A stretch of DNA of 10,860 nucleotides from Campylobacterota bacterium. Its GTDB lineage: Bacteria > Campylobacterota > Campylobacteria > Campylobacterales > Sulfurimonadaceae. How positions within the stretch are numbered: the first letter of the stretch is position 1; every line of letters begins with the position of its first letter. Below are positions 2,396 through 10,860 of this stretch, one piece after another. The translations under genes were made by a program, and so were the position numbers. The stretch lies in NCBI GenBank assembly GCA_034717975.1, contig JAYEMF010000065.1:4996-15855 (forward strand). Reading direction: 5' to 3'. The notes beneath the pieces are model-generated. The model ran no database searches. It was not told the origin of the DNA and saw only the letters and a program-made list of their open reading frames with translations.

Positions 2396-3424
2396 TCAGG
2401 GCTTGAGATCGATAGCTATACCCAGAACGTTCGAGAGACCCTCTTTTTCAATCAGCTTTTGCAGTTTTTTGGAGGCATTATTGATAGCGACATCCATGCC
2501 CTGGGTTGCCTGGCCGGTAAGGTTGAGTTTGTTGCCGCCGATGATCTTGCCCTGATGGTTTCTGACCTCTATCACCAAGGCGATTCTGGCAATATCGAAG
2601 CCTCGTGAACGGGCCGTTTCAATGGATGAAGCCAACGAAACGGCAAGGCTGTTCTGATCGCTTTGCGATGGTCTGACAACACGCATCTTGTTATCGGTAA
2701 GGGCAACGCTGATCACTTCTGCAAATTTTCGGGTATCGCTGTCGCCTTCAACCGAGAAAGCCAGTTGTGCCTTGAGCGTTTCAAAGGCCTTGCTGATCTT
2801 TGCACTCTGCTTCAGGTAGGGGGAGTCATCAAAAGTTTTATCTACCGTGCTCAGTATCAGCAGGGTGGAAAAAGTTTCATTCAATCTGTTAGATGCATCT
2901 GCGTAAAAACGGTAGCGGCTGAGCAGGTCGCTTGATGCCATGAGTCTCTCTTGTGACGTGATTTTTCCATAGGTGAGTTCCAGCTCTTTGAGCAGACCGT
3001 TCATGAAGCTCTGCTTATCGGAACGTACAAGCGCAATAAAGTGGTTATAGCTTCGTTTGTCACTCTTTATGACTTCATAGTTGCTGATACGGATCTTGGC
3101 GATTTCACTTTTCAGTTCGCTTGTCGTTGATTTTTTCAGATACTCCCGGTAGCCCTTGCTGACCTCAGTTGCTGATTCAAAACGTGACGCGATGGAGATA
3201 CCAAGCTGAGCGACCATACTTTCAAGTGCATGTTTTTTAGCCTCATCCAGATTTTTCCCATCACCCACACCGTAGAGATAAGCATCTGAATTCAGCGGTG
3301 GTGTCAGATACCACTCTGGCAGCGGTTTTTTCTGTGTGACTACAGGTGCCGGTTTGGAACCTCCACAGGCACTCAGGCTAATGAGCATAATGGCAAAGAG
3401 AATGCCGGTAAAAAGTGCTTTCAT
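2396..3424 (-). CDS. LPP20-family-like lipoprotein
   Basis: 342 aa with signal peptide and lipobox LSA-C20. PEWY..P....YLYGVG.G....EAKK.AL..M..Q..I.I.S pattern is characteristic of LPP20-type domains. Start overlaps the upstream stop codon (ATGA, 3421-3424). Confidence 0.7.
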   Translation of the reverse strand: MKALFTGILFAIMLISLSACGGSKPAPVVTQKKPLPEWYLTPPLNSDAYLYGVGDGKNLDEAKKHALESMVAQLGISIASRFESATEVSKGYREYLKKSTTSELKSEIAKIRISNYEVIKSDKRSYNHFIALVRSDKQSFMNGLLKELELTYGKITSQERLMASSDLLSRYRFYADASNRLNETFSTLLILSTVDKTFDDSPYLKQSAKISKAFETLKAQLAFSVEGDSDTRKFAEVISVALTDNKMRVVRPSQSDQNSLAVSLASSIETARSRGFDIARIALVIEVRNHQGKIIGGNKLNLTGQATQGMDVAINNASKKLQKLIEKEGLSNVLGIAIDLKP

Positions 3425-4419
3425 TGGGCAATCTGCTTTCGTGCCTGTTCATCATCGGTGATCGAGTTTTTGATACGCAACATCGCAGTATCGATCTCTT
3501 CAACCGGTTCAATGGTCAGCGAGTCGGCAAGCCCATACAGCTGATGCGCTTCATTCAGTTCACCGTTGATCTCTTTTACGACACCGAGGTTATAGGCAGC
3601 GACATAACTGCGTTCGAGCGTCTCATCTAGCAGACGGCTTAAAAGCTTCTCGGCCTTGTCATAACGCTGACGTTCAATGTAGAGAAGGGCATTTTCCAGC
3701 AGTGACTCTTGCAGATCGCTGTAGTCGATGTCCGGCTCTTCGAGTAAAATGACATTGAAGGTGACATAAGAGGGTGTTAACTGCTGGGCAAAGATGGCGG
3801 CTATGCCGGATGCCAGGTATTCAAGCCCCTGTGTTTTGGATGGCAAGCTCTTGCTGTCATCCGAGCAGTGATTCCACTCTCTGGACTTTTTAAAGGTGTC
3901 ACTGTAGATAATATCGCCTTTTGCAATATCGACCATTTTGATCTGTGCTGCCAGAGTAATGACACGTTTGGTGCAGCCAACAGTGTACTCCTGAATTTCT
4001 TTACACTTTTTATCGAGACACTTGTAGCGTTTTTCACGATAGTGGGTGTCTGATGAAGCGGCATTGCTGATCGTACCGCTGATCAGTGCCTGAGCGCCCA
4101 GCAGATTGCCCACTTCCACGGATGTGGATTCATCAAGCAGACCGGAGTTCTGCAGTCGCTGCTCCTGAAGAATTTTATCAATATCGTTGCGGCTGATCAT
4201 TGTAAAATAGGTTTTGCCATCGAGCCGCTTTGAAGCAAGTTCCGACTCGATCTTGCCGGACAAGCCGACACGGTCACGCTGGAAGGGGCTGACGGCGATC
4301 GTCTTGGTCTGTGCCGCACGGTCAACTTTAGCCGGCTGCAGGGCATGCACTTTGACCTTCTGGGAACAGCCTGTAAAGAGTAGCATAGTACCCAGTGTCA
4401 GCAGTAGGGGTATTCTCAT
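3421..4419 (-). CDS. CsgG/HfaB-like lipoprotein with C-terminal TPR-like helices
   Basis: 332 aa with lipobox FTG-C18. CsgG-like core (IAVSPF, FTMISRNDIDKILQEQRLQNSGLLDEST...GNLLGAQALISGTI, IKMVDIAKGDII) and a TPR-like end (YDKAEKLL..AAYNLGVVKE..G...EA..LY). Confidence 0.7.
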   Translation of the reverse strand: MRIPLLLTLGTMLLFTGCSQKVKVHALQPAKVDRAAQTKTIAVSPFQRDRVGLSGKIESELASKRLDGKTYFTMISRNDIDKILQEQRLQNSGLLDESTSVEVGNLLGAQALISGTISNAASSDTHYREKRYKCLDKKCKEIQEYTVGCTKRVITLAAQIKMVDIAKGDIIYSDTFKKSREWNHCSDDSKSLPSKTQGLEYLASGIAAIFAQQLTPSYVTFNVILLEEPDIDYSDLQESLLENALLYIERQRYDKAEKLLSRLLDETLERSYVAAYNLGVVKEINGELNEAHQLYGLADSLTIEPVEEIDTAMLRIKNSITDDEQARKQIAQ

Positions 4420-4669: not shown

Positions 4670-5497
4670 ATGATTAAACATATAAGTTTGGTATTGATTT
4701 TTTTGGGTTTACTGATGAGCGGATGTGCGAACAAAGATTTTCGCATGTTTGAAGAGGACTCTCAGTCAGAAAGCGGTGATTCTGAAGCCGTCAAAACAGT
4801 GAGCGATGAAGAGTACCAGCAGGAGCTCGAGTATGAGTGGAAGATCGTTAAAGGCGACCGGGTTGAAATCGCTGTATTCAACCAGTCCTCAGCTTCAGGA
4901 GGCGGACAACTCGAATCGATTATCGACACATCCAGACAGACACAGTTTAATAACAGAGACGGTACGGAAGGGCTTCTTATCCCGACTAACGGTAAAATTC
5001 ATCTTCCGATGCTTGGCCATATCAAGCTTGCCGGTCTGACCGAGATTGAGGCGGGTGATAAGCTGACAGATGAGTACAAAAAATTTCTACGTAACCCTTA
5101 TGTAGTGGTTAAGATCCAGAACCAGCGCCTTTTCGTACTGGGTGAAGTCAACAGACCCGGTGTCGTACAGGTCACAGCCGGGAACATGACTATTTTTGAA
5201 GCACTGGCACAAAGCGGTGATGTTACCGATGACGCGATGCGCACCAATATACGTATTATCAGAGGGGACCTTCGCAACCCTACCATGCGTGAAGTTGACC
5301 TGACCGATATGGGTGCAATGAGGGTTTCAAGCCTGATGCTAAGACCAAACGATATCGTCTACGTCCAGCCTAGAAGTATGAAAGCCTACAATAAAGCGTT
5401 CGACGAACAGGTGCCGTTCTTTAACATGATCAACACTATGCTGGCTCCGTTTGTATCAATTACCTATATTAAAGATGGCTATAAAATACATTGGTAA
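4670..5497 (+). CDS. wza: Polysaccharide export outer-membrane lipoprotein (Wza/OPX family)
   Basis: 275 aa with lipobox MSG-C19. Poly_export motif (GDRVEIAVF...NGKIHLPMLGHIKLAGLT..EA...L......LRNPYVVV) and SLBB domain (FVLGEVNRPG...TIFEALAQSG...LRPNDIVYVQP). Directly upstream of wzc. Confidence 0.9.
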   Translation: MIKHISLVLIFLGLLMSGCANKDFRMFEEDSQSESGDSEAVKTVSDEEYQQELEYEWKIVKGDRVEIAVFNQSSASGGGQLESIIDTSRQTQFNNRDGTEGLLIPTNGKIHLPMLGHIKLAGLTEIEAGDKLTDEYKKFLRNPYVVVKIQNQRLFVLGEVNRPGVVQVTAGNMTIFEALAQSGDVTDDAMRTNIRIIRGDLRNPTMREVDLTDMGAMRVSSLMLRPNDIVYVQPRSMKAYNKAFDEQVPFFNMINTMLAPFVSITYIKDGYKIHW

Positions 5498-5536
5498 GTG
5501 CTCAGTCAGGTCAATACTCCTGACCCGATTTTCCAT

Positions 5537-5564
5537 AGAATACTTCTCAATAGAGAAGTATTCT
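5537..5564. other. Perfect 12-bp stem-loop in the wza-wzc spacer (possible terminator/attenuator or mRNA stabiliser)
   Basis: AGAATACTTCTC-AATA-GAGAAGTATTCT. A smaller hairpin GTCAGG-N8-CCTGAC lies at 5505-5524. No clear U-tract on the + strand. Confidence 0.55.
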
Positions 5565-5608
5565 GATATTAGAATAAAAAATTTCAACTTATGTAAAGAT
5601 ATTATTAT

Positions 5609-7963
5609 ATGAACAGTTCTCAAGACAATACCCAGAGAGATGAAGACGAAATCGATATCAGAGAGATTTTGACGATTCTAAAGCGCTATAAGCTCTCCAT
5701 TGTTTTAATTACACTCTCTATTACTCTGATCAGTGGTATGGTAGCGTATTTTTCGCCTGATATCTATCGTGCAAGCACCACATTTTCAATCAGCTCCGAT
5801 GAAGGGCGCTACGGTGGGCAGAAAGATATCCTGACTATGGCAGCCGGCCCTTCCGGAAGTAGCAGTGAGAATGATATTGCAATGCTACAGTCATCATTCC
5901 TTGCCGAAAAAGCTCTGAAAAACCTGAACCTGGGTACACGATACTTCACGAAAGAACGTTACAAAACCCATGAACTCTATAAATCATCACCCTTTGTAGT
6001 TGCTACCCGCTACCTCTCTCCAAAAGCAGCAGGGGTCAAGTTTCAACTTGCTCCTGTAAATGAAGATACGTTCTGGTTGACTATCGAACCTTCCAAAAAG
6101 ACAAAAATCTTCAATTTTGTTCAATCTTTTTTTACCCCTATTCCAGATTCTGAACAGCCACTCAGCTACAAAGAGATGCACTCCTTTGATGCACCGATCT
6201 CTACACCATGGTTCGAGATTGAAGTCAAAAGGGTCCACAAACTCCAGGATCAACCCTACTTCTTTACCATTGTCCCCAACGCATCGATGACCGGTTATAT
6301 CGGTTCTGGACTTTCTGTCTTCCCGGCAAGCGAAGAGGGTATGATTGTACAAATTGATTATGAAGATACGGTAGCACTCCGTGCCAAAGAAACTCTCGAT
6401 GCGATCCTTCACGCCTATGAGGAAGAGAATCTACTGCAAAAAACCCAGAGTGCTTCAAAAAAACTCAATTTTATTGATGAGCAGCTTAAAGGCATAAGTT
6501 CTGCTTTGAAATCATCATCCAGGGAGCTGCGTCAATACAAATCCAAACGAGTCGGAGTTCCACTAAATCAAAAAACAGCCATTGCCGCTGAAAAAATCAC
6601 TGCATACCAAACGGAGATAGATGAACTCAATATTCAGATCGAACTTTTTGAAAATACCCTAACCTTCATCGAATTAGGCAATGATCTGAAAAATGTCAAC
6701 CTCGGCAATACAATAGACACCGAACCTATCAACCTGATGATAAATCAAATTATTGAAGGTGATGATGAACAGAGCATTCTATTACTTGACTTTACGGAAC
6801 TGCACCCGGATGTTATCCGCATAACAGAAAAACTGCGTAAGCTCAAAGAACGACTGATTCAAACAGTTAAAAGTACCCTTGATCGTTTCAAAAAAAGACG
6901 TAAAGCAATTACCTTACTTCTTGAAAAAGAGCAAAAAAACCTCGAAAGCCTGCCGCAGCAGCAAGAAGATCTGGGCAGTTTAAGCCGGGGATTTATGGTT
7001 AACGAGAATATCTACTCCTATCTTTTGCAGAAGCGGGCAGAAACCGCCGTTGTTGAGGCATCCAAGATCTCAACGATCCAGATGATTGAACCATCTTACT
7101 ATCCTGCGCTTCCGGTTAAACCAAAACGTCTCTTTATGATTATTGTTGGCTTTATTCTCGGCTTGATTGTCGGAATTGGTACGGCATTTATCCGGGCATA
7201 TTCCATCACAACCGTCCAGACCGTCGAAGATATTGAAAAATTGACTTCAATCCCAATTTACGGTGCATTGCCGCTCTTACCTGCACGCAAACACAAGCAT
7301 CTCTATCTCGAAGCGCTGCGCGTGTTACGGACCAACCTTGAGTTCTTAGACAATAAAGGAAAATCGAGGCTCATCACCTTCACTTCTTCTGTCCCAACTG
7401 AAGGGAAAACAACCACCATTTCCGAACTTGGAAAGATACTGGCAAAGGGGCATAAAAAGGTTATCATCCTCGATCTGGATCTAAGACGTTCCAGACTCCA
7501 TGAAAAATTTTCACTTGAAAATACAGCAGGTATGAGTACCCTTTTAGCACATCGACATGATCTAAAAGCAGTCCTTCAGCATACTGATCACAATAATCTG
7601 CATGTCATTACAAGTGGTCCAACTCCGCCAAATCCCTCTGAGCTGATCATGTCCAATTCACTCGATGAACTGATAACTGCACTGCTCAAGGCGTATGACT
7701 ATGTCTTGCTTGATACACCGCCGATCGGTTTTGTAGCTGATGCTATGATCACTATGCACAAGTCGGATATCAACATAATCGTCTTACGTGCCGGTTATTC
7801 CAAAAAAGCGTACATTGAGAATATCAACAAATTTGTGAAACAGCATGATCTCAATGCAGGCTTTGTTCTAAACGGGATGAAAATGGAGAGCTCTTCAGGG
7901 TATGGTTATGGCTACGGATCCGACTACGGCTATGCGAACACTTACTATAATAAAAGGACCTGA
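5609..7963 (+). CDS. wzc: Polysaccharide co-polymerase / BY tyrosine autokinase (Wzc/GumC family)
   Basis: 784 aa with N-terminal DEIDI..I + TM1, a long coiled-coil periplasmic region, PVKPK + TM2, EALRVLRTNL, Walker A SSVPTEGKTT, A' IILDLDLRR, Walker B LLDTPP and a C-terminal cluster of 7 Tyr (YGYGYGSDYGYANTYY). Confidence 0.95.
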   Translation: MNSSQDNTQRDEDEIDIREILTILKRYKLSIVLITLSITLISGMVAYFSPDIYRASTTFSISSDEGRYGGQKDILTMAAGPSGSSSENDIAMLQSSFLAEKALKNLNLGTRYFTKERYKTHELYKSSPFVVATRYLSPKAAGVKFQLAPVNEDTFWLTIEPSKKTKIFNFVQSFFTPIPDSEQPLSYKEMHSFDAPISTPWFEIEVKRVHKLQDQPYFFTIVPNASMTGYIGSGLSVFPASEEGMIVQIDYEDTVALRAKETLDAILHAYEEENLLQKTQSASKKLNFIDEQLKGISSALKSSSRELRQYKSKRVGVPLNQKTAIAAEKITAYQTEIDELNIQIELFENTLTFIELGNDLKNVNLGNTIDTEPINLMINQIIEGDDEQSILLLDFTELHPDVIRITEKLRKLKERLIQTVKSTLDRFKKRRKAITLLLEKEQKNLESLPQQQEDLGSLSRGFMVNENIYSYLLQKRAETAVVEASKISTIQMIEPSYYPALPVKPKRLFMIIVGFILGLIVGIGTAFIRAYSITTVQTVEDIEKLTSIPIYGALPLLPARKHKHLYLEALRVLRTNLEFLDNKGKSRLITFTSSVPTEGKTTTISELGKILAKGHKKVIILDLDLRRSRLHEKFSLENTAGMSTLLAHRHDLKAVLQHTDHNNLHVITSGPTPPNPSELIMSNSLDELITALLKAYDYVLLDTPPIGFVADAMITMHKSDINIIVLRAGYSKKAYIENINKFVKQHDLNAGFVLNGMKMESSSGYGYGYGSDYGYANTYYNKRT

Positions 7964-7991
7964 GGCCTGAGATCAGTATCACCTTGAGCAT

Positions 7992-8759
7992 TTAAAGCGA
8001 GTTGTTGAGGATGGTATTATGAGTAAAAATGTTCTGGTAATCCATACTTTTAAAAACTTCAGTCATTCGCTCAAGATGACGTACTTTGTGTGTATCGCTC
8101 CCAATAAAATCAACCATACCTCGTGATATCAGTTCATTGACTGTATTCCTGGCTCCTTCACCATAATATCCGCCCAGGGAGTTGATGTTCATCTGAAATA
8201 AAACACCCAGGCTCTTGATCTTTTCATAACCGGTTATATTACCCTGCATAAAGAGGTATCGTTCCGGATGTGCCAAAACCGGCTGATAGCCCAAGGATTT
8301 CATTTTATATATCCCCTCTTCAAAACCGACAGGCCGGAGCCCATACGACATCTCAAACAAAAGGTGCTTATTGCCGAATGTTAAAATGTCACGAGACTCT
8401 AAAAGCTCTATGAAATGGGGATCAAAATAGTATTCTGCCGCTACTTCGATCTTTATATCGATCCGCCTGCGCTTGAGCTCTTTTTGTAATTTATATAGGG
8501 CTATTTTGATGTCCCGAGAAGTGTTGGGGTAGCGATGGCTCATAATATGAGGTGTCGTAATGAGCTTTTTATACCCTAAAAGTTTTAAGCGCCATATCAT
8601 CGCTATGGAATCTTCTATTGTGGCAGCCCCATCATCGATGCCGGGGATAAGATGCGAATGCAGATCAACCTCTAGTTGTGTCTTGTGCTCGGTAGGGAAC
8701 ATCTCATCAGCTGAATCATCGGTGATCTTGTCTATGATCTTCTTGAAAAAATTTCCCAA
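7992..8759 (-). CDS. CpsB/CapC-type PHP-family protein tyrosine phosphatase
   Basis: 255 aa with TTG start. Motifs DLHSHLIPGIDDG, ITTPH, AAEYY, VLAHPERY and FIGSDTH. Adjacent and convergent to wzc. Confidence 0.92.
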   Translation of the reverse strand: MGNFFKKIIDKITDDSADEMFPTEHKTQLEVDLHSHLIPGIDDGAATIEDSIAMIWRLKLLGYKKLITTPHIMSHRYPNTSRDIKIALYKLQKELKRRRIDIKIEVAAEYYFDPHFIELLESRDILTFGNKHLLFEMSYGLRPVGFEEGIYKMKSLGYQPVLAHPERYLFMQGNITGYEKIKSLGVLFQMNINSLGGYYGEGARNTVNELISRGMVDFIGSDTHKVRHLERMTEVFKSMDYQNIFTHNTILNNSL

Positions 8760-8935
8760 ACAGTTCCTCTGCTTTCCTTGGTAGCTTTAAACACCCTATA
8801 GTTAATGAACATGCAATAATATCATAACTGCTCTGCATTACCTGAAGAACTAATCCAAACATTATTTAATATTTAATCTTATTTTAATATAAAATATGAA
8901 ATACTTATGTTATATCATCTTAGAAGGAGGATATT

Positions 8936-9268
8936 ATGAAAACGCTAAAAGATCAAAATGACAGACGCTTATTTTTGAAAAAAGCAGCATATGTTATTCC
9001 GACGGTGGTAGGCTTAGGATATTTGACTCAACCTACAGCATCAAATGCTATGGGTAGGAGAGGTGGTGGCGGTGGACATGCCACGTACGTTGCAAGTAAT
9101 GAGGCAACCGGATCATCTTTTAAACGCAATTGTAACAACGGTTGGGGAAATGGTGACGACTGCGCACCTGGAAACTCTCTGTTTAACAATAATGCGGAAA
9201 ACAACAATCCGTTTGATGGAAATCCGCACAATAAACACTTCCCGGATTTGCCAGGAGATATCTACTAA
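8936..9268 (+). CDS. Small Gly/Asn-rich protein with twin-arginine (Tat-like) N-terminus and lasso/RRE-like leader motif; candidate modified-peptide precursor
   Basis: Strong SD AAGGAGG at 8924-8930 before ATG. DRRLFLKK twin-Arg motif, YVIPTVVGLGYLTQPT, ASNA possible peptidase site, G5 linker and CNNGWGNGDDCAPGNS..NNNAEN segment. Confidence refers to the ORF being real; its function is inferred. Confidence 0.75.
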   Translation: MKTLKDQNDRRLFLKKAAYVIPTVVGLGYLTQPTASNAMGRRGGGGGHATYVASNEATGSSFKRNCNNGWGNGDDCAPGNSLFNNNAENNNPFDGNPHNKHFPDLPGDIY

Positions 9269-9388: not shown

Positions 9389-9664
9389 CTAGTACCAGAC
9401 CACACCTGTTTTGACGGTCCCTGTGATTTAAAAAATAGTCAGTTGTTGTGCTTTGGCAGTGCAGGAGCAGTCATTCTGCTTCAAACTGTCAAAGTGCGGC
9501 AAATGGCTGTTTTTTAAACCACCCAAAGGGAAAGCGTATAGCACACGGATTGACGGCGCCAGCGCATTGCAAACGTACATAAAGTACGCCTGCAACACCC
9601 TGACTTGCACTCCATGCACTCTACGCTTTCAGGGACCGTCAAAACAGGTGTGGTCTGGTACTAG
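9389..9664. mobile_element. MITE (non-autonomous miniature inverted-repeat element), 276 bp including CTAG ends
   Basis: Perfect 35-bp inverted repeat CTAGTACCAGACCACACCTGTTTTGACGGTCCCTG (9389-9423) / CAGGGACCGTCAAAACAGGTGTGGTCTGGTACTAG (9630-9664). CTAG at both ends is consistent with a CTAG or TA target duplication. No transposase inside; interior is highly structured and more GC-rich than the flanks. Confidence 0.85.
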
Positions 9665-9852
9665 TTAAGCGGCTAAATAAGATTTCATAATTGTAGTGAA
9701 GAATGCCTCTACAGGTTTTTAAAAAAAAAGCCCCAAATAGTTCCTATACTAGCTATATCTGCACTATCTAAAAAATCCAATTTAAACATTTTTAACTATA
9801 TTTTATTGTAAATTATGATATATTAACTATATAACTAACTTTCGCTCATGCC

Positions 9853-9879
9853 GTCACCCCGGACTTGATCCGGGGTCCA
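9853..9879. repeat. Single REP-like hairpin (GTCA-headed)
   Basis: GTC-ACCCCGGA-CTTGA-TCCGGGGT-CCA: a GC-rich 8-bp stem isolated in AT-rich intergenic DNA, with the same GTCA head and architecture as the units at 2281-2348. Confidence 0.65.
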
Positions 9880-9969: not shown

Positions 9970-10842
9970 GTGGTAGCTTATGATCATGAGTTGATTATTG
10001 ACAGGTTTGCCTCAGAGAAAAAAGGGGTTTCCAAAAAAAAGCCTCTTTTTATTACAGAAAGTAAAACTTTTTCGGCAGATGATTACCCCTTCAAAGAAAA
10101 GTTTCACAATAATCAAAACAGAATACTCCGCTTATATAGTGACAACGACATAAGATATGCTGTCAAAGATCAAAGATGGGTATTTACCATAGAAGATGTT
10201 GTTAGTTTTTCTTGGCTTCAGGAAAGTAATGAGATTTTTTATCAACTTTTACCATCGGCTACAGAAGAGCTGTTACGCTACTGGCTGCTTCATATCGTAC
10301 TGCCTCTCTATCTGACCACAGAAAACCTATACTATTTTCTACATGCCGGTGCGGTGCAGGTTGATAAAAAATCGGTCCTCTTTATGGCCGACTCTTTTGG
10401 TGGAAAATCAACGCTGACCGATTTTTTTCTGAAAAAGGGACATACGCTTATCTCTGATGACAAAGTTGCTACTTTTGAAGAAAACGACACCTTTATGGCA
10501 GTGCCTTCCTACTCCTACCACCGCCCTTATCGCGCTACAGAAGATCTTGGTATAAAAGTAGATAACTTTGCCACCGAGCCAAGACCGATCAAAGCGATCT
10601 ATCTGCTTATTTCGGTGGATGAGGATGTAGAGACCACCATTTCTCCTGCAAAAGGCATCGAAAAATTTTCCAGTCTACGTTTTGCGACAGAAGTCGGTCT
10701 GCCTCTCTTTATGCAAGAGCGCTTTGCCTATCTGACAAAACTTGCCAATAACACTGCTATCTTTAATGTTACAATTCCCTGGGACCTTGATCGTCTCAGC
10801 GAGGTCTATGACGCTATAGTGGCACATACTAAAACACTTTAA
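9970..10842 (+). CDS. HPr kinase-related P-loop kinase (lasso-peptide-kinase / HprK-related family)
   Basis: 290 aa with GTG start. FLHAGAV motif, Walker A variant ADSFGGKST and LISDD di-aspartate motif of the HprK C-terminal fold. The N-terminus does not resemble that of canonical HprK/P. Confidence 0.75.
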   Translation: MVAYDHELIIDRFASEKKGVSKKKPLFITESKTFSADDYPFKEKFHNNQNRILRLYSDNDIRYAVKDQRWVFTIEDVVSFSWLQESNEIFYQLLPSATEELLRYWLLHIVLPLYLTTENLYYFLHAGAVQVDKKSVLFMADSFGGKSTLTDFFLKKGHTLISDDKVATFEENDTFMAVPSYSYHRPYRATEDLGIKVDNFATEPRPIKAIYLLISVDEDVETTISPAKGIEKFSSLRFATEVGLPLFMQERFAYLTKLANNTAIFNVTIPWDLDRLSEVYDAIVAHTKTL

Positions 10843-10851
10843 GGACATTCA

Positions 10852-10860
10852 ATGACTTTA
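10852..10860 (+). CDS. Probable start of next gene (M-T-L...), truncated by the window edge
   Basis: AAGGA SD at 10841-10845 overlaps the kinase stop codon, followed by ATG at 10852. Product cannot be determined from 3 codons. Confidence 0.5.

Follow-up and report, generated by a model that had tools for sequence, protein, structure and literature searches.

A probable peptide precursor with a putative dual-role Tat and RRE-recognition leader beside an HprK-like kinase gene in a Campylobacterota bacterium

The precursor gene, its leader and its neighbours

The stretch of DNA analysed here (the window) comprises 10,860 nt of a Campylobacterota assembly (G000:C65:4996-15855), and its last base is the end of the contig. 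The completeness of the source genome was rated at 99.9%. The features needed for the analysis, in window positions, are the following.

4670-5497, plus strand: gene for a Wza-like exporter (polysaccharide export context)
5609-7963, plus strand: gene for a Wzc-like tyrosine kinase (polysaccharide export context)
7992-8759, minus strand: gene for a CpsB-type phosphatase, completing the polysaccharide export context (4670..8759)
8926..8930, plus strand: Shine-Dalgarno sequence GGAGG, 5 nt before the ATG
8936..9268, plus strand, stop codon included: precursor ORF P0001, 110 aa, supported by its translation and by homologues
8960..8983, plus strand: DRRLFLKK, residues 9-16, a match to the twin-arginine consensus, with RR invariant in 13 of 13 precursors
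8990..9019, plus strand: YVIPTVVGLG, residues 19-28, of the form [Y/W]xxPx[L/V/I]xxxG, an RRE-binding-type motif that is at the same time the hydrophobic core of the signal
9032..9049, plus strand: PTASNA, residues 33-38, the c-region, in which Pro at -6 precedes a small-x-small site (S36, A38)
9134..9202, plus strand: conserved core module NNGWGNGDDCAPGNSLFNNNAEN, residues 67-89, with invariant columns; the module was found in 54 loci
9389..9664: MITE-like insertion whose terminal inverted repeats are perfect over 35 nt, between the precursor and kinase genes
9828..9879: short palindromic REP-like repeat, with copies on many contigs
9861-9878: terminator-like hairpin inside the REP-like repeat
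9970..10842, plus strand: gene for an HprK-like peptide kinase, 290 aa, GTG start, with H125, K146, D163 and D164 present
10853..10860, plus strand: start of the next ORF (ATG ACT TT..), truncated by the contig end at the position held by PqqD in the related loci L001-L003 and L083

As in the window, genes for Wza, Wzc and CpsB were also observed beside the related cassette L083 of genome G294. The kinase gene starts 702 nt downstream of the precursor gene, across a spacer of about 700 bp, and since this spacer holds both the terminator-like hairpin and the MITE-like element, a second copy of which lies on contig C77 (89% identity), the co-expression of the two genes is uncertain. Scanning of the window gave no match to Rfam, and promoter matches were at chance level. 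Only 18 nt separate the stop codon of the kinase gene from the end of the contig.

Twin-arginine signals follow the consensus (S/T)RRxFLK and continue with an uncharged h-region and a small-x-small c-region. Residues 9-38 of P0001, which correspond to 8960-9049, show this layout, with D-R-R-L-F-L-K-K, then 24 uncharged residues, and then A-S-N-A. From the -3/-1 rule, which is the basis for assigning a signal peptidase I site, a cut of the signal-peptidase-I type was predicted after A38. The same residues hold the positions of a lasso-type leader, namely Y19, P22, V24 (in place of L), G28 and T34, together with P33 and A35-S36-N37-A38. A sequence-only reading of this DNA had already described DRRLFLKK at residues 9-16 as a twin-arginine match, and Y19, P22, V24, G28 and T34 as a lasso leader with exact spacing; the translation of 8936-9268 on the plus strand agrees with both descriptions. 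Thus, the observation of the two motifs was confirmed, and its interpretation, as detailed below, was partly supported.

Curated models recognised little of this protein. Pfam and NCBIfam gave no useful match to P0001 at E values up to 10, and the curated Tat-signal model TIGR01409 did not match P0001 and scored 11.2-14.2 bits on three relatives, under its cut-off of 16.7. TatC was found in the genome (224 bits). The chance level of the motif combination was determined within this genome, in which 4,327 ORFs reach a length of 80 aa and together encode 982,381 residues. The pattern RR.[FL][LIM]K with [YW]..P.[LIVFA]...G no more than 6 residues behind it occurred in 1 of the 4,327, which is the ORF at 8936-9268, and Y..P.[LIV]...G.....T occurred twice among them. 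When residues 17-38 were shuffled 200,000 times, the full relaxed lasso motif was regained in 0.034% of the shuffles, and YxxPx[LIVFA] alone in 7.4%. In addition, a loose filter listed 19 further RR-type candidate signals in the genome, and on reading, no [YW]xxP followed the RR in any of them. These results indicated that the combination of motifs is no chance product of signal-peptide composition.

Downstream of the leader, S81 is the sole invariant hydroxyl residue of the core module, and it is, with low confidence, a candidate phospho-acceptor. The C-terminus of P0001 reads ...GDIY.

Conservation of the leader and its linkage with kinase, PqqD and nucleotidyltransferase genes

Joint conservation of the two motifs in homologues, proposed as a check in the sequence-only reading, was borne out by the 13 precursors of set A3, which without exception keep the RR, one Lys, the Pro of YxxP and the Leu-Gly, and whose C-termini are unrelated. 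The aromatic position of YxxP was Y in 11 of these precursors and W in two, and residue Y+15 was T in six, S in four and another residue in three. A leader-only profile of 38 positions (A4) was then run against 1.84 billion representative proteins, where 582 clusters (50% identity) reached E ≤ 1e-3, 78 of them E ≤ 1e-10. The 150 top-ranking of the 582 matches were all proteins of 46-141 aa that matched near the N-terminus, and 148 of these 150 were scanned for motifs, P0002 and P0006 being left out. The composite of RR/KR, [YW]xxP and G was present in 145 of the 148 family representatives, with RR in 143 of those 145; these counts, as all motif counts for this family, are partly circular because the profile itself contains both motifs. 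With the same proviso, the P of YxxP and the Y/W were each found in 148 of 148 representatives, G(+9) in 146, P(+14) in 135 and T(+15) in 42. A small-x-small site was observed in 148 of 148 under a loose rule, and basic c-region residues in 86 of 148. Ten family proteins that were checked by identity were either unnamed or called 'hypothetical protein'.

The distribution of this leader was compared with that of the kinase in 301 sampled genomes of the order. Matches to the leader profile of at least 38 bits were observed at 11 places in nine of the 301 genomes; the kinase was present in all nine, and nine of the 11 matches lay within 1.5 kb of it, the exceptions being in G061 and G005. Seven of the 301 genomes had leader matches at 20-28 bits only, and the kinase was found in none of these; the matches were small Tat proteins of the FdhX kind plus a single protein of 224 aa, with RRxFLKKAA and no YxxP. 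Related genomes are not independent, and this co-occurrence is therefore given without a statistical claim.

The kinase encoded at 9970-10842 matched PF07475 with an E value of 2.5e-4, which is below the cut-off of that model, and at 22.1 bits (cut-off 200) it fails the HPr-rel-A kinase model TIGR04352. It shares 42-46% identity with the kinases of L001-L003 and 36-49% with kinases that belong to canonical lasso clusters in its order. Among 15 kinases aligned from both contexts (A5), H125, S142, G145, K146 and D164 were invariant and D163 nearly so. A His-Lys-Asp-Asp motif has been reported for lasso-tailoring kinases (PMC9266682), and H125, K146, D163 and D164 correspond to it.

A search with the kinase, which is independent of the leader, gave orthologues (E ≤ 1e-30) in 17 of the 301 genomes, G000 included, and weak matches only in three more. 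Nineteen sites outside the window were found in this way. At eight of the 19 (L059, L063, L067, L068, L069, L076, L077 and L078), a small ORF of 58-77 aa with RRxF[LI]KKAx[YW]xxPxhxxLG lay within 1.5 kb of the kinase gene. The leaders of these eight ORFs read [ST]RRxF[LI]KKAx[YW]xxPxhxxLGxhxxP...AxA, and they were joined to quite different C-termini, including GPSGPP..GW, Cys-rich and Ser/Thr/Pro-rich types; a lasso-B1-like PqqD gene and a PF14907 nucleotidyltransferase gene were usually nearby. Seven further sites belonged to canonical lasso clusters, in which an ABC transporter, a PF13471 B2 protein and an Asn-synthase-type cyclase are encoded, and the remaining four showed neither a leader ORF nor a lasso cluster within short flanks. 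The alignments and gene neighbourhoods suggest that P0001 is likely a substrate of the HprK-like kinase encoded about 700 bp downstream. The sole other kinase orthologues in the family of the window's organism (G228 and G270) both lie within lasso clusters; thus, the cassette may have been acquired horizontally, and it could be decaying.

The neighbouring PqqD, which the sequence-only reading had named for a check of RRE binding, was present in relatives, where it adjoins the kinase at L001-L003, L079, L080 and L083, and was not found in this assembly. Neither a PqqD nor a PF14907 nucleotidyltransferase was detected in the genome of the window, whose contig stops where relatives have PqqD. By analogy with these relatives, we assume that both genes are present in this organism. 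At L083, PqqD directly follows the kinase and PF14907 is five genes away, and among the leader-positive genomes tested, PqqD was present in 5 of 5 and PF14907 in 5 of 5, often distant from the precursor. The PqqD proteins of L001-L003 are 90 aa long and match PF05402 with E values of 9e-12 to 2e-14. A profile of nine PqqDs (A2) found its best match in the lasso RRE TbiB1 (5v1u/5v1v; E 4e-21), followed in order by 9x90_B, TfuB1 (6jx3) and 9x8z_B, and the best NCBIfam models for these proteins were two lasso PqqD models, which they match at 41-55 bits, short of the cut-offs (70 and 80). By similarity, the PqqDs of the relatives are lasso-B1-like RREs.

Two observations bear on the recognition of the leader by such an RRE. 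In G169, the single PqqD of the whole genome is located in a hybrid locus (L081), which encodes two precursors, one canonical lasso (MKKEYAQPKLIVMGSMVKITQ...) and one of the Tat type, each accompanied by its own kinase copy; this arrangement is easiest understood if one RRE reads the KK..YxxPxLxxxG segment common to both precursors. A structure prediction for the PqqD-precursor complex, proposed in the sequence-only reading, was run on the cognate pair of a relative (L002) and gave a weakly positive score of 0.39, compared with 0.01 for the best of three controls. The mark applied to such predictions was reached by 116 of 157 solved complexes and by 2 of 215 mismatched pairs; those that reached it with a score of 0.60 or less were only 18 of the 157 solved complexes and both mismatches. 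Contact agreement between the L002 runs was at least 91%, and the pLDDT of the partner was at least 46; the output listed no individual contacts. Solved B1-leader complexes exist, and the score may merely reproduce known structures, so that the predicted pairing is a weak indication of binding.

A second line of homology starts from the core module. A word-indexed search returned nine candidates, among which seven proteins had E ≤ 0.01; the query is counted among these, giving six homologues, including P0002 (64% identity to P0001). Their invariant part is the C-terminal module NNGWGNGD.APG.S...N.AEN. In four of the six closest full-length homologues (Sulfurovum type), KR and Y-x4-P replace RR and YxxP. 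The Sulfurovum-type relatives adjoin proteins of 365-393 aa whose resemblance to the kinase is confined to a weak P-loop similarity and which match no Pfam model.

Scanning species-representative genomes with core-module patterns gave 137 matches, 61 of which were confirmed and fell into 54 loci. Large proteins account for most of the 54, namely giant adhesins and, in Rhodobacteraceae, TadE-like and vWA proteins. Using nothing but the core motif, the search also recovered L001-L003 of Sulfurimonadaceae, small proteins with the same leader as P0001, the genes of which adjoin, divergently, an operon of HprK-like kinase, PqqD and PF14907 nucleotidyltransferase. At L004 (Roseovarius), the neighbours of a small RR protein are an HprK-like protein, a PF14907 protein and an ABC transporter, and at L040 (Kordiimonadaceae), an RR protein occurs with PF14907 and a PqqD that passes TIGR04353. 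The NGWGNG precursors of L004 and L040 keep the RR, without [YW]xxP, beside kinase, PqqD or nucleotidyltransferase genes. Conversely, L045 of a Bacillota MAG encodes a 59-aa NGWGNG peptide with YVKPSI and no RR; its neighbours are a weakly HprK-like protein, an S24-type peptidase and a PqqD, and the locus lies beside a lasso cluster and sugar transferases. The possibility that NGWGNG...NNAEN is a general mark of kinase substrates was rejected, since tblastn with the Campylobacterota kinase placed a kinase within 10 kb only at L001-L004 and L045 of the 54 loci. With these queries, which were limited to the Campylobacterota kinase, no kinase was found near the large Rhodobacteraceae proteins (TadE-like and vWA) or near the giant adhesins.

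Proposed mechanism and rival explanations

We propose, with a probability of roughly 60%, that 8936-9268 encodes the precursor of a leader-guided peptide-kinase system kin to the LPPs of Bacillota (Popov et al., Nat Commun 2026, PMC13381572) and to phosphorylated lasso peptides, and that its leader serves both as a Tat signal and as an RRE-binding site. According to this model, the [Y/W]xxPx(L/V/I) strand (YVIPTV) of KKAAYVIPTVVGLG would be bound by a PqqD of the lasso-B1 type, which would present the peptide to the HprK-like kinase (9970-10842) for phosphorylation; in relatives, the PF14907 nucleotidyltransferase probably acts as well. DRRLFLKK, KKAAYVIPTVVGLG and P33...A-S-N-A38 together would form a twin-arginine signal peptide, with which the product would be exported by the housekeeping Tat translocase and cleaved by signal peptidase I after A38. 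In this way, Tat and signal peptidase I would stand in for the SipW-like peptidase and the ABC pump of LPP clusters. The hydrophobic core of the signal contains the RRE site, so that a leader occupied by the RRE should be unavailable to Tat, and vice versa. We hypothesise that modification would consequently be ordered before export, the peptide being held by the RRE and then released.

On a larger scale, the 582 clusters might represent a family of secreted peptides in which one segment is both a Tat signal and an RRE handle, PqqD acting as a proofreading chaperone that masks the signal until modification; we regard this generalisation as tentative and judge it to have about one chance in three at best. 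If such a dual Tat/RRE family exists, it would be a Gram-negative counterpart of LPPs with a RiPP logic undescribed in the literature that was searched. The proposed system, if right, would extend phosphorylated linear peptides past Bacillota. It would also name a long-missing type of substrate for the widespread kinase/PqqD/nucleotidyltransferase cassette of polysaccharide loci, add a new role to RiPP recognition elements and a new class to Tat substrates, and offer a simple, testable rule in which an enzyme-docking site inside an export signal ensures cytoplasmic modification before export. RRxFLKKAxYxxPxhxxLG could then serve as a signature for mining hundreds of unannotated small genes.

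Three other explanations of the locus were weighed against this proposal. A lasso core is short, begins with a small residue and carries Asp or Glu at one of positions 7-9 to close the macrolactam. The sequence-only reading had allowed for a B2-type cut after T34-A35, and in a true lasso precursor a cyclase would then form the ring; the YxxPxVxxxGxxxxxTx spacing of P0001 and the kinase orthologues in real lasso clusters of the same order are in keeping with it. The would-be core SNAMGRRGG..., however, is 75 residues long, has R, G and G at positions 7-9 and reaches its first acidic residue at E56, and the T34 position is T in only 42 of 148 representatives. No PF13471 B2 protein was found in the genome, no cyclase adjoins the gene, and Asn-synthase matches lie on other contigs only, the single strong one being a 656-aa gene; the window has neither a B2 protein nor a cyclase. 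The real lasso precursors in clusters of the same order read MKKxYxxPxLxxxGxxxxxTx, measure 39-43 aa where complete and have no RR. In the absence of a B2 protein, an adjacent cyclase and an acidic residue at core positions 7-9, both the cut and the product were rejected, and we consider a true lasso precursor extremely improbable.

Alternatively, P0001 could be an ordinary small protein secreted through Tat or Sec, with YxxP...G as a lineage-specific quirk and with the kinase acting elsewhere, for example in polysaccharide regulation. Much at the locus is compatible with this explanation, as the gene lies within a Wza/Wzc/CpsB locus, the MITE and the terminator-like hairpin part it from the kinase, and no RRE was found in the genome. 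Moreover, the five 'lasso' positions fall inside a signal peptide, a setting in which G, P and T/S occur frequently and in which one would expect a small-x-small site with P at -6; T at Y+15 is poorly kept (42/148). It does not account, however, for the same leader on unrelated C-termini at 8 of the 19 sites that were found through the kinase alone, nor for the P and the Y/W of YxxP, each kept in 148 of 148 representatives and neither needed by a signal peptide. Tat proteins of the FdhX type scored only 20-28 bits on the leader profile and came from genomes without the kinase, and [YW]xxP was absent from the 19 other RR-type signals of this genome. Thus, ordinary secretion appears unlikely. 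The third explanation accepts a modified-peptide precursor and denies export by Tat: RRxFLKK would be only part of an enzyme-recognition leader, which some protease removes, and the product would be retained or leave by another route. The failure of TIGR01409 to match is consistent with this, as are the ABC exporters at some related loci (L004 and L081) and the fact that LPP and lasso leaders function without a signal peptide (PMC13381572); the basic c-region residues in 86 of 148, by contrast, count against it. So do the agreement of RRxFLKK with the Tat consensus residue for residue, the use of RR rather than K/R mixtures in 143 of 145, and the approximately 24 uncharged residues, Pro and small-x-small site that then follow (148/148 by the loose rule). 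Furthermore, the cassettes lack a dedicated peptidase, an exporter was observed only in the lasso hybrid of G169, and TatC is present. A leader without an export function therefore has a rather low probability, and the dual-role Tat/RRE leader is the best explanation.

Comparison with known systems

The proposed logic, in which a protein that binds the signal delays export, resembles that of TorD, DmsD and NapD, which bind twin-arginine signals in the cytoplasm, delay export until maturation and serve cofactor-containing redox enzymes. Those proteins have other folds; here, the binder would be an RRE of the PqqD type, and maturation would be the modification of a peptide. No relevant paper linking a Tat signal with an RRE was found in the literature search; the supplements of PMC13381572 could list non-Bacillota clusters.

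The HPr-rel-A system, for which the literature search found no paper, comprises kinase A (TIGR04352) and a PqqD chaperone (TIGR04353). It has the same three enzyme types and often occurs in exopolysaccharide loci, and at L040 the distant NGWGNG protein adjoins PF14907 and a TIGR04353 PqqD (49.3 bits, cut-off 35). It differs in that the kinase of the window scores 22 bits on TIGR04352 and the PqqDs of its close relatives score better on lasso models.

Phosphorylated and phosphoglycosylated lasso peptides are represented by paeninodin (PadeK) and pseudomycoidin (PsmK/PsmN) (PMC9266682). These systems share with the present one an HprK-type kinase for a linear, leader-bearing precursor, a partner with a nucleotidyltransferase fold and an RRE of the B1 type. 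They are unlike it in that no cyclase, B2 protein or C-terminal Ser occurs here, the product would be linear and much longer, and the leader carries an export signal.

Of the systems described so far, the LPP family (LppA/K/B/S/D/N) of Bacillota comes closest. According to PMC13381572, LPP precursors are 35-200 aa long and carry YxxPxVLxHQxIxFETxxS; the kinase LppK polyphosphorylates Ser3 of the core, and LppB is an RRE that hands the leader to LppS, a SipW-like signal peptidase. The clusters also encode an MsbA-like pump, LppD, and an NTP transferase, and they are located in capsular polysaccharide loci, often beside paeninodin-type lasso clusters (PMC13381572). The YxxPxV-type motif is described there as recognised by both lasso and LPP RREs. 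The authors called LPPs restricted to Bacillota, and the words 'Tat', 'signal peptide' and 'Gram-negative' do not appear in the main text of the article (PMC13381572).

Measured against this description, the Campylobacterota systems are alike in their YxxPxV-type N-terminus and variable C-terminus, in the HprK-like kinase, in the discrete lasso-like RRE and PF14907-type NTP transferase (these two in relatives), and in the polysaccharide-locus setting without a cyclase. They differ in that the extended motif LxHQxIxFETxxS is absent from P0001, LppS- and LppD-like genes are absent from the window and from the cassettes of L001-L003, L079, L080 and L083, and the leader has RRxFLKK, a hydrophobic core and a small-x-small site. 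Pfam scans of neighbouring genes revealed no signal-peptidase-like gene in any of the Campylobacterota cassettes that they covered, and among these cassettes only the hybrid of G169 (L081), beside lasso genes, has an MsbA-like ABC exporter. The Bacillota locus L045, with its NGWGNG-core precursor, YxxP, PqqD and S24-type peptidase, is a further point of likeness to LPPs. Taken together, the presence of a peptidase at L045, the precursor of which has YxxP and no RR, and its absence from the cassettes with RR fit the replacement of LppS and LppD by Tat and signal peptidase I.

Distribution of the NNGWGNG core module

The core of the precursor contains a 23-residue module that is shared with proteins from other genomes.

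9134-9202: module NNGWGNGDQxAPGNSxxxNNAEN, also present in loci L004-L054

This module was observed at 54 loci in very diverse proteins, including small secreted peptides, TadE-like and vWA proteins of Rhodobacteraceae, and proteins of Verrucomicrobia and Bacteriovoracaceae; in Azospirillum, the carrier is an open frame of 5,058 residues that is cut by the start of the locus. In some cases the module occurs twice per protein, and no Pfam model matched its 23 residues.

Repeated elements and lipoprotein genes in the window

Two repeated elements and two lipoprotein genes were located in the window.

9389-9664: MITE-like element of 276 bp with 35-nt perfect terminal inverted repeats
9828-9879: palindromic repeat of ~50 nt; its hairpin (9861-9878) precedes a T-run
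3421-4419 (-): lipoprotein gene, CsgG/LpoB-like protein with a TPR tail
2396-3424 (-): lipoprotein gene, LPP20-like protein

The 276-bp element, which looks like a MITE, lies between the precursor gene and the kinase gene; within the same genome, another copy, 89% identical along 277 bp, is found on contig C77, and contig C106 has a partial one. The palindromic repeat was found on 16 other contigs of this genome with 81-98% identity, and resembles a REP-type intergenic repeat. The two lipoprotein genes (2396-4419) are neighbours of each other and adjoin the polysaccharide export genes.

Related leaders and their gene neighbourhoods

A second leader subfamily, with the pattern ..DEAKREFMKKFGKYAATAPLGMYLLMGPGASKAQA|SGS.., was observed in genus g11 of the same order (L093, L097-L100, L103, L104, L108, and L111). 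Its genes occur in up to three tandem copies and encode highly variable C-termini that are Cys/His-rich or larger. In most loci checked (L097, L099, L103, L104, L108, and L111), the gene adjoins proteins of ~280-420 aa that resemble the kinase only weakly, through P-loop similarity; none of five such neighbours scanned against Pfam gave a significant match.

A hybrid locus was found in a relative of the same order (L081, G169:C1:352000-371000), where a LamG-type secreted protein, a 259-aa protein, a Tat-type precursor, a kinase, and an ABC transporter are followed by a second kinase, a lasso cyclase, a lasso precursor, and the sole PqqD of that genome. In this locus, as in L079, L080, L084, and L085, the GPSGPP..GW-type precursor is always preceded by a LamG/P-domain secreted protein (650-800 aa) and a ~260-aa protein that is likely a lipoprotein. 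The association of these three genes suggests that they form part of a conserved larger module.
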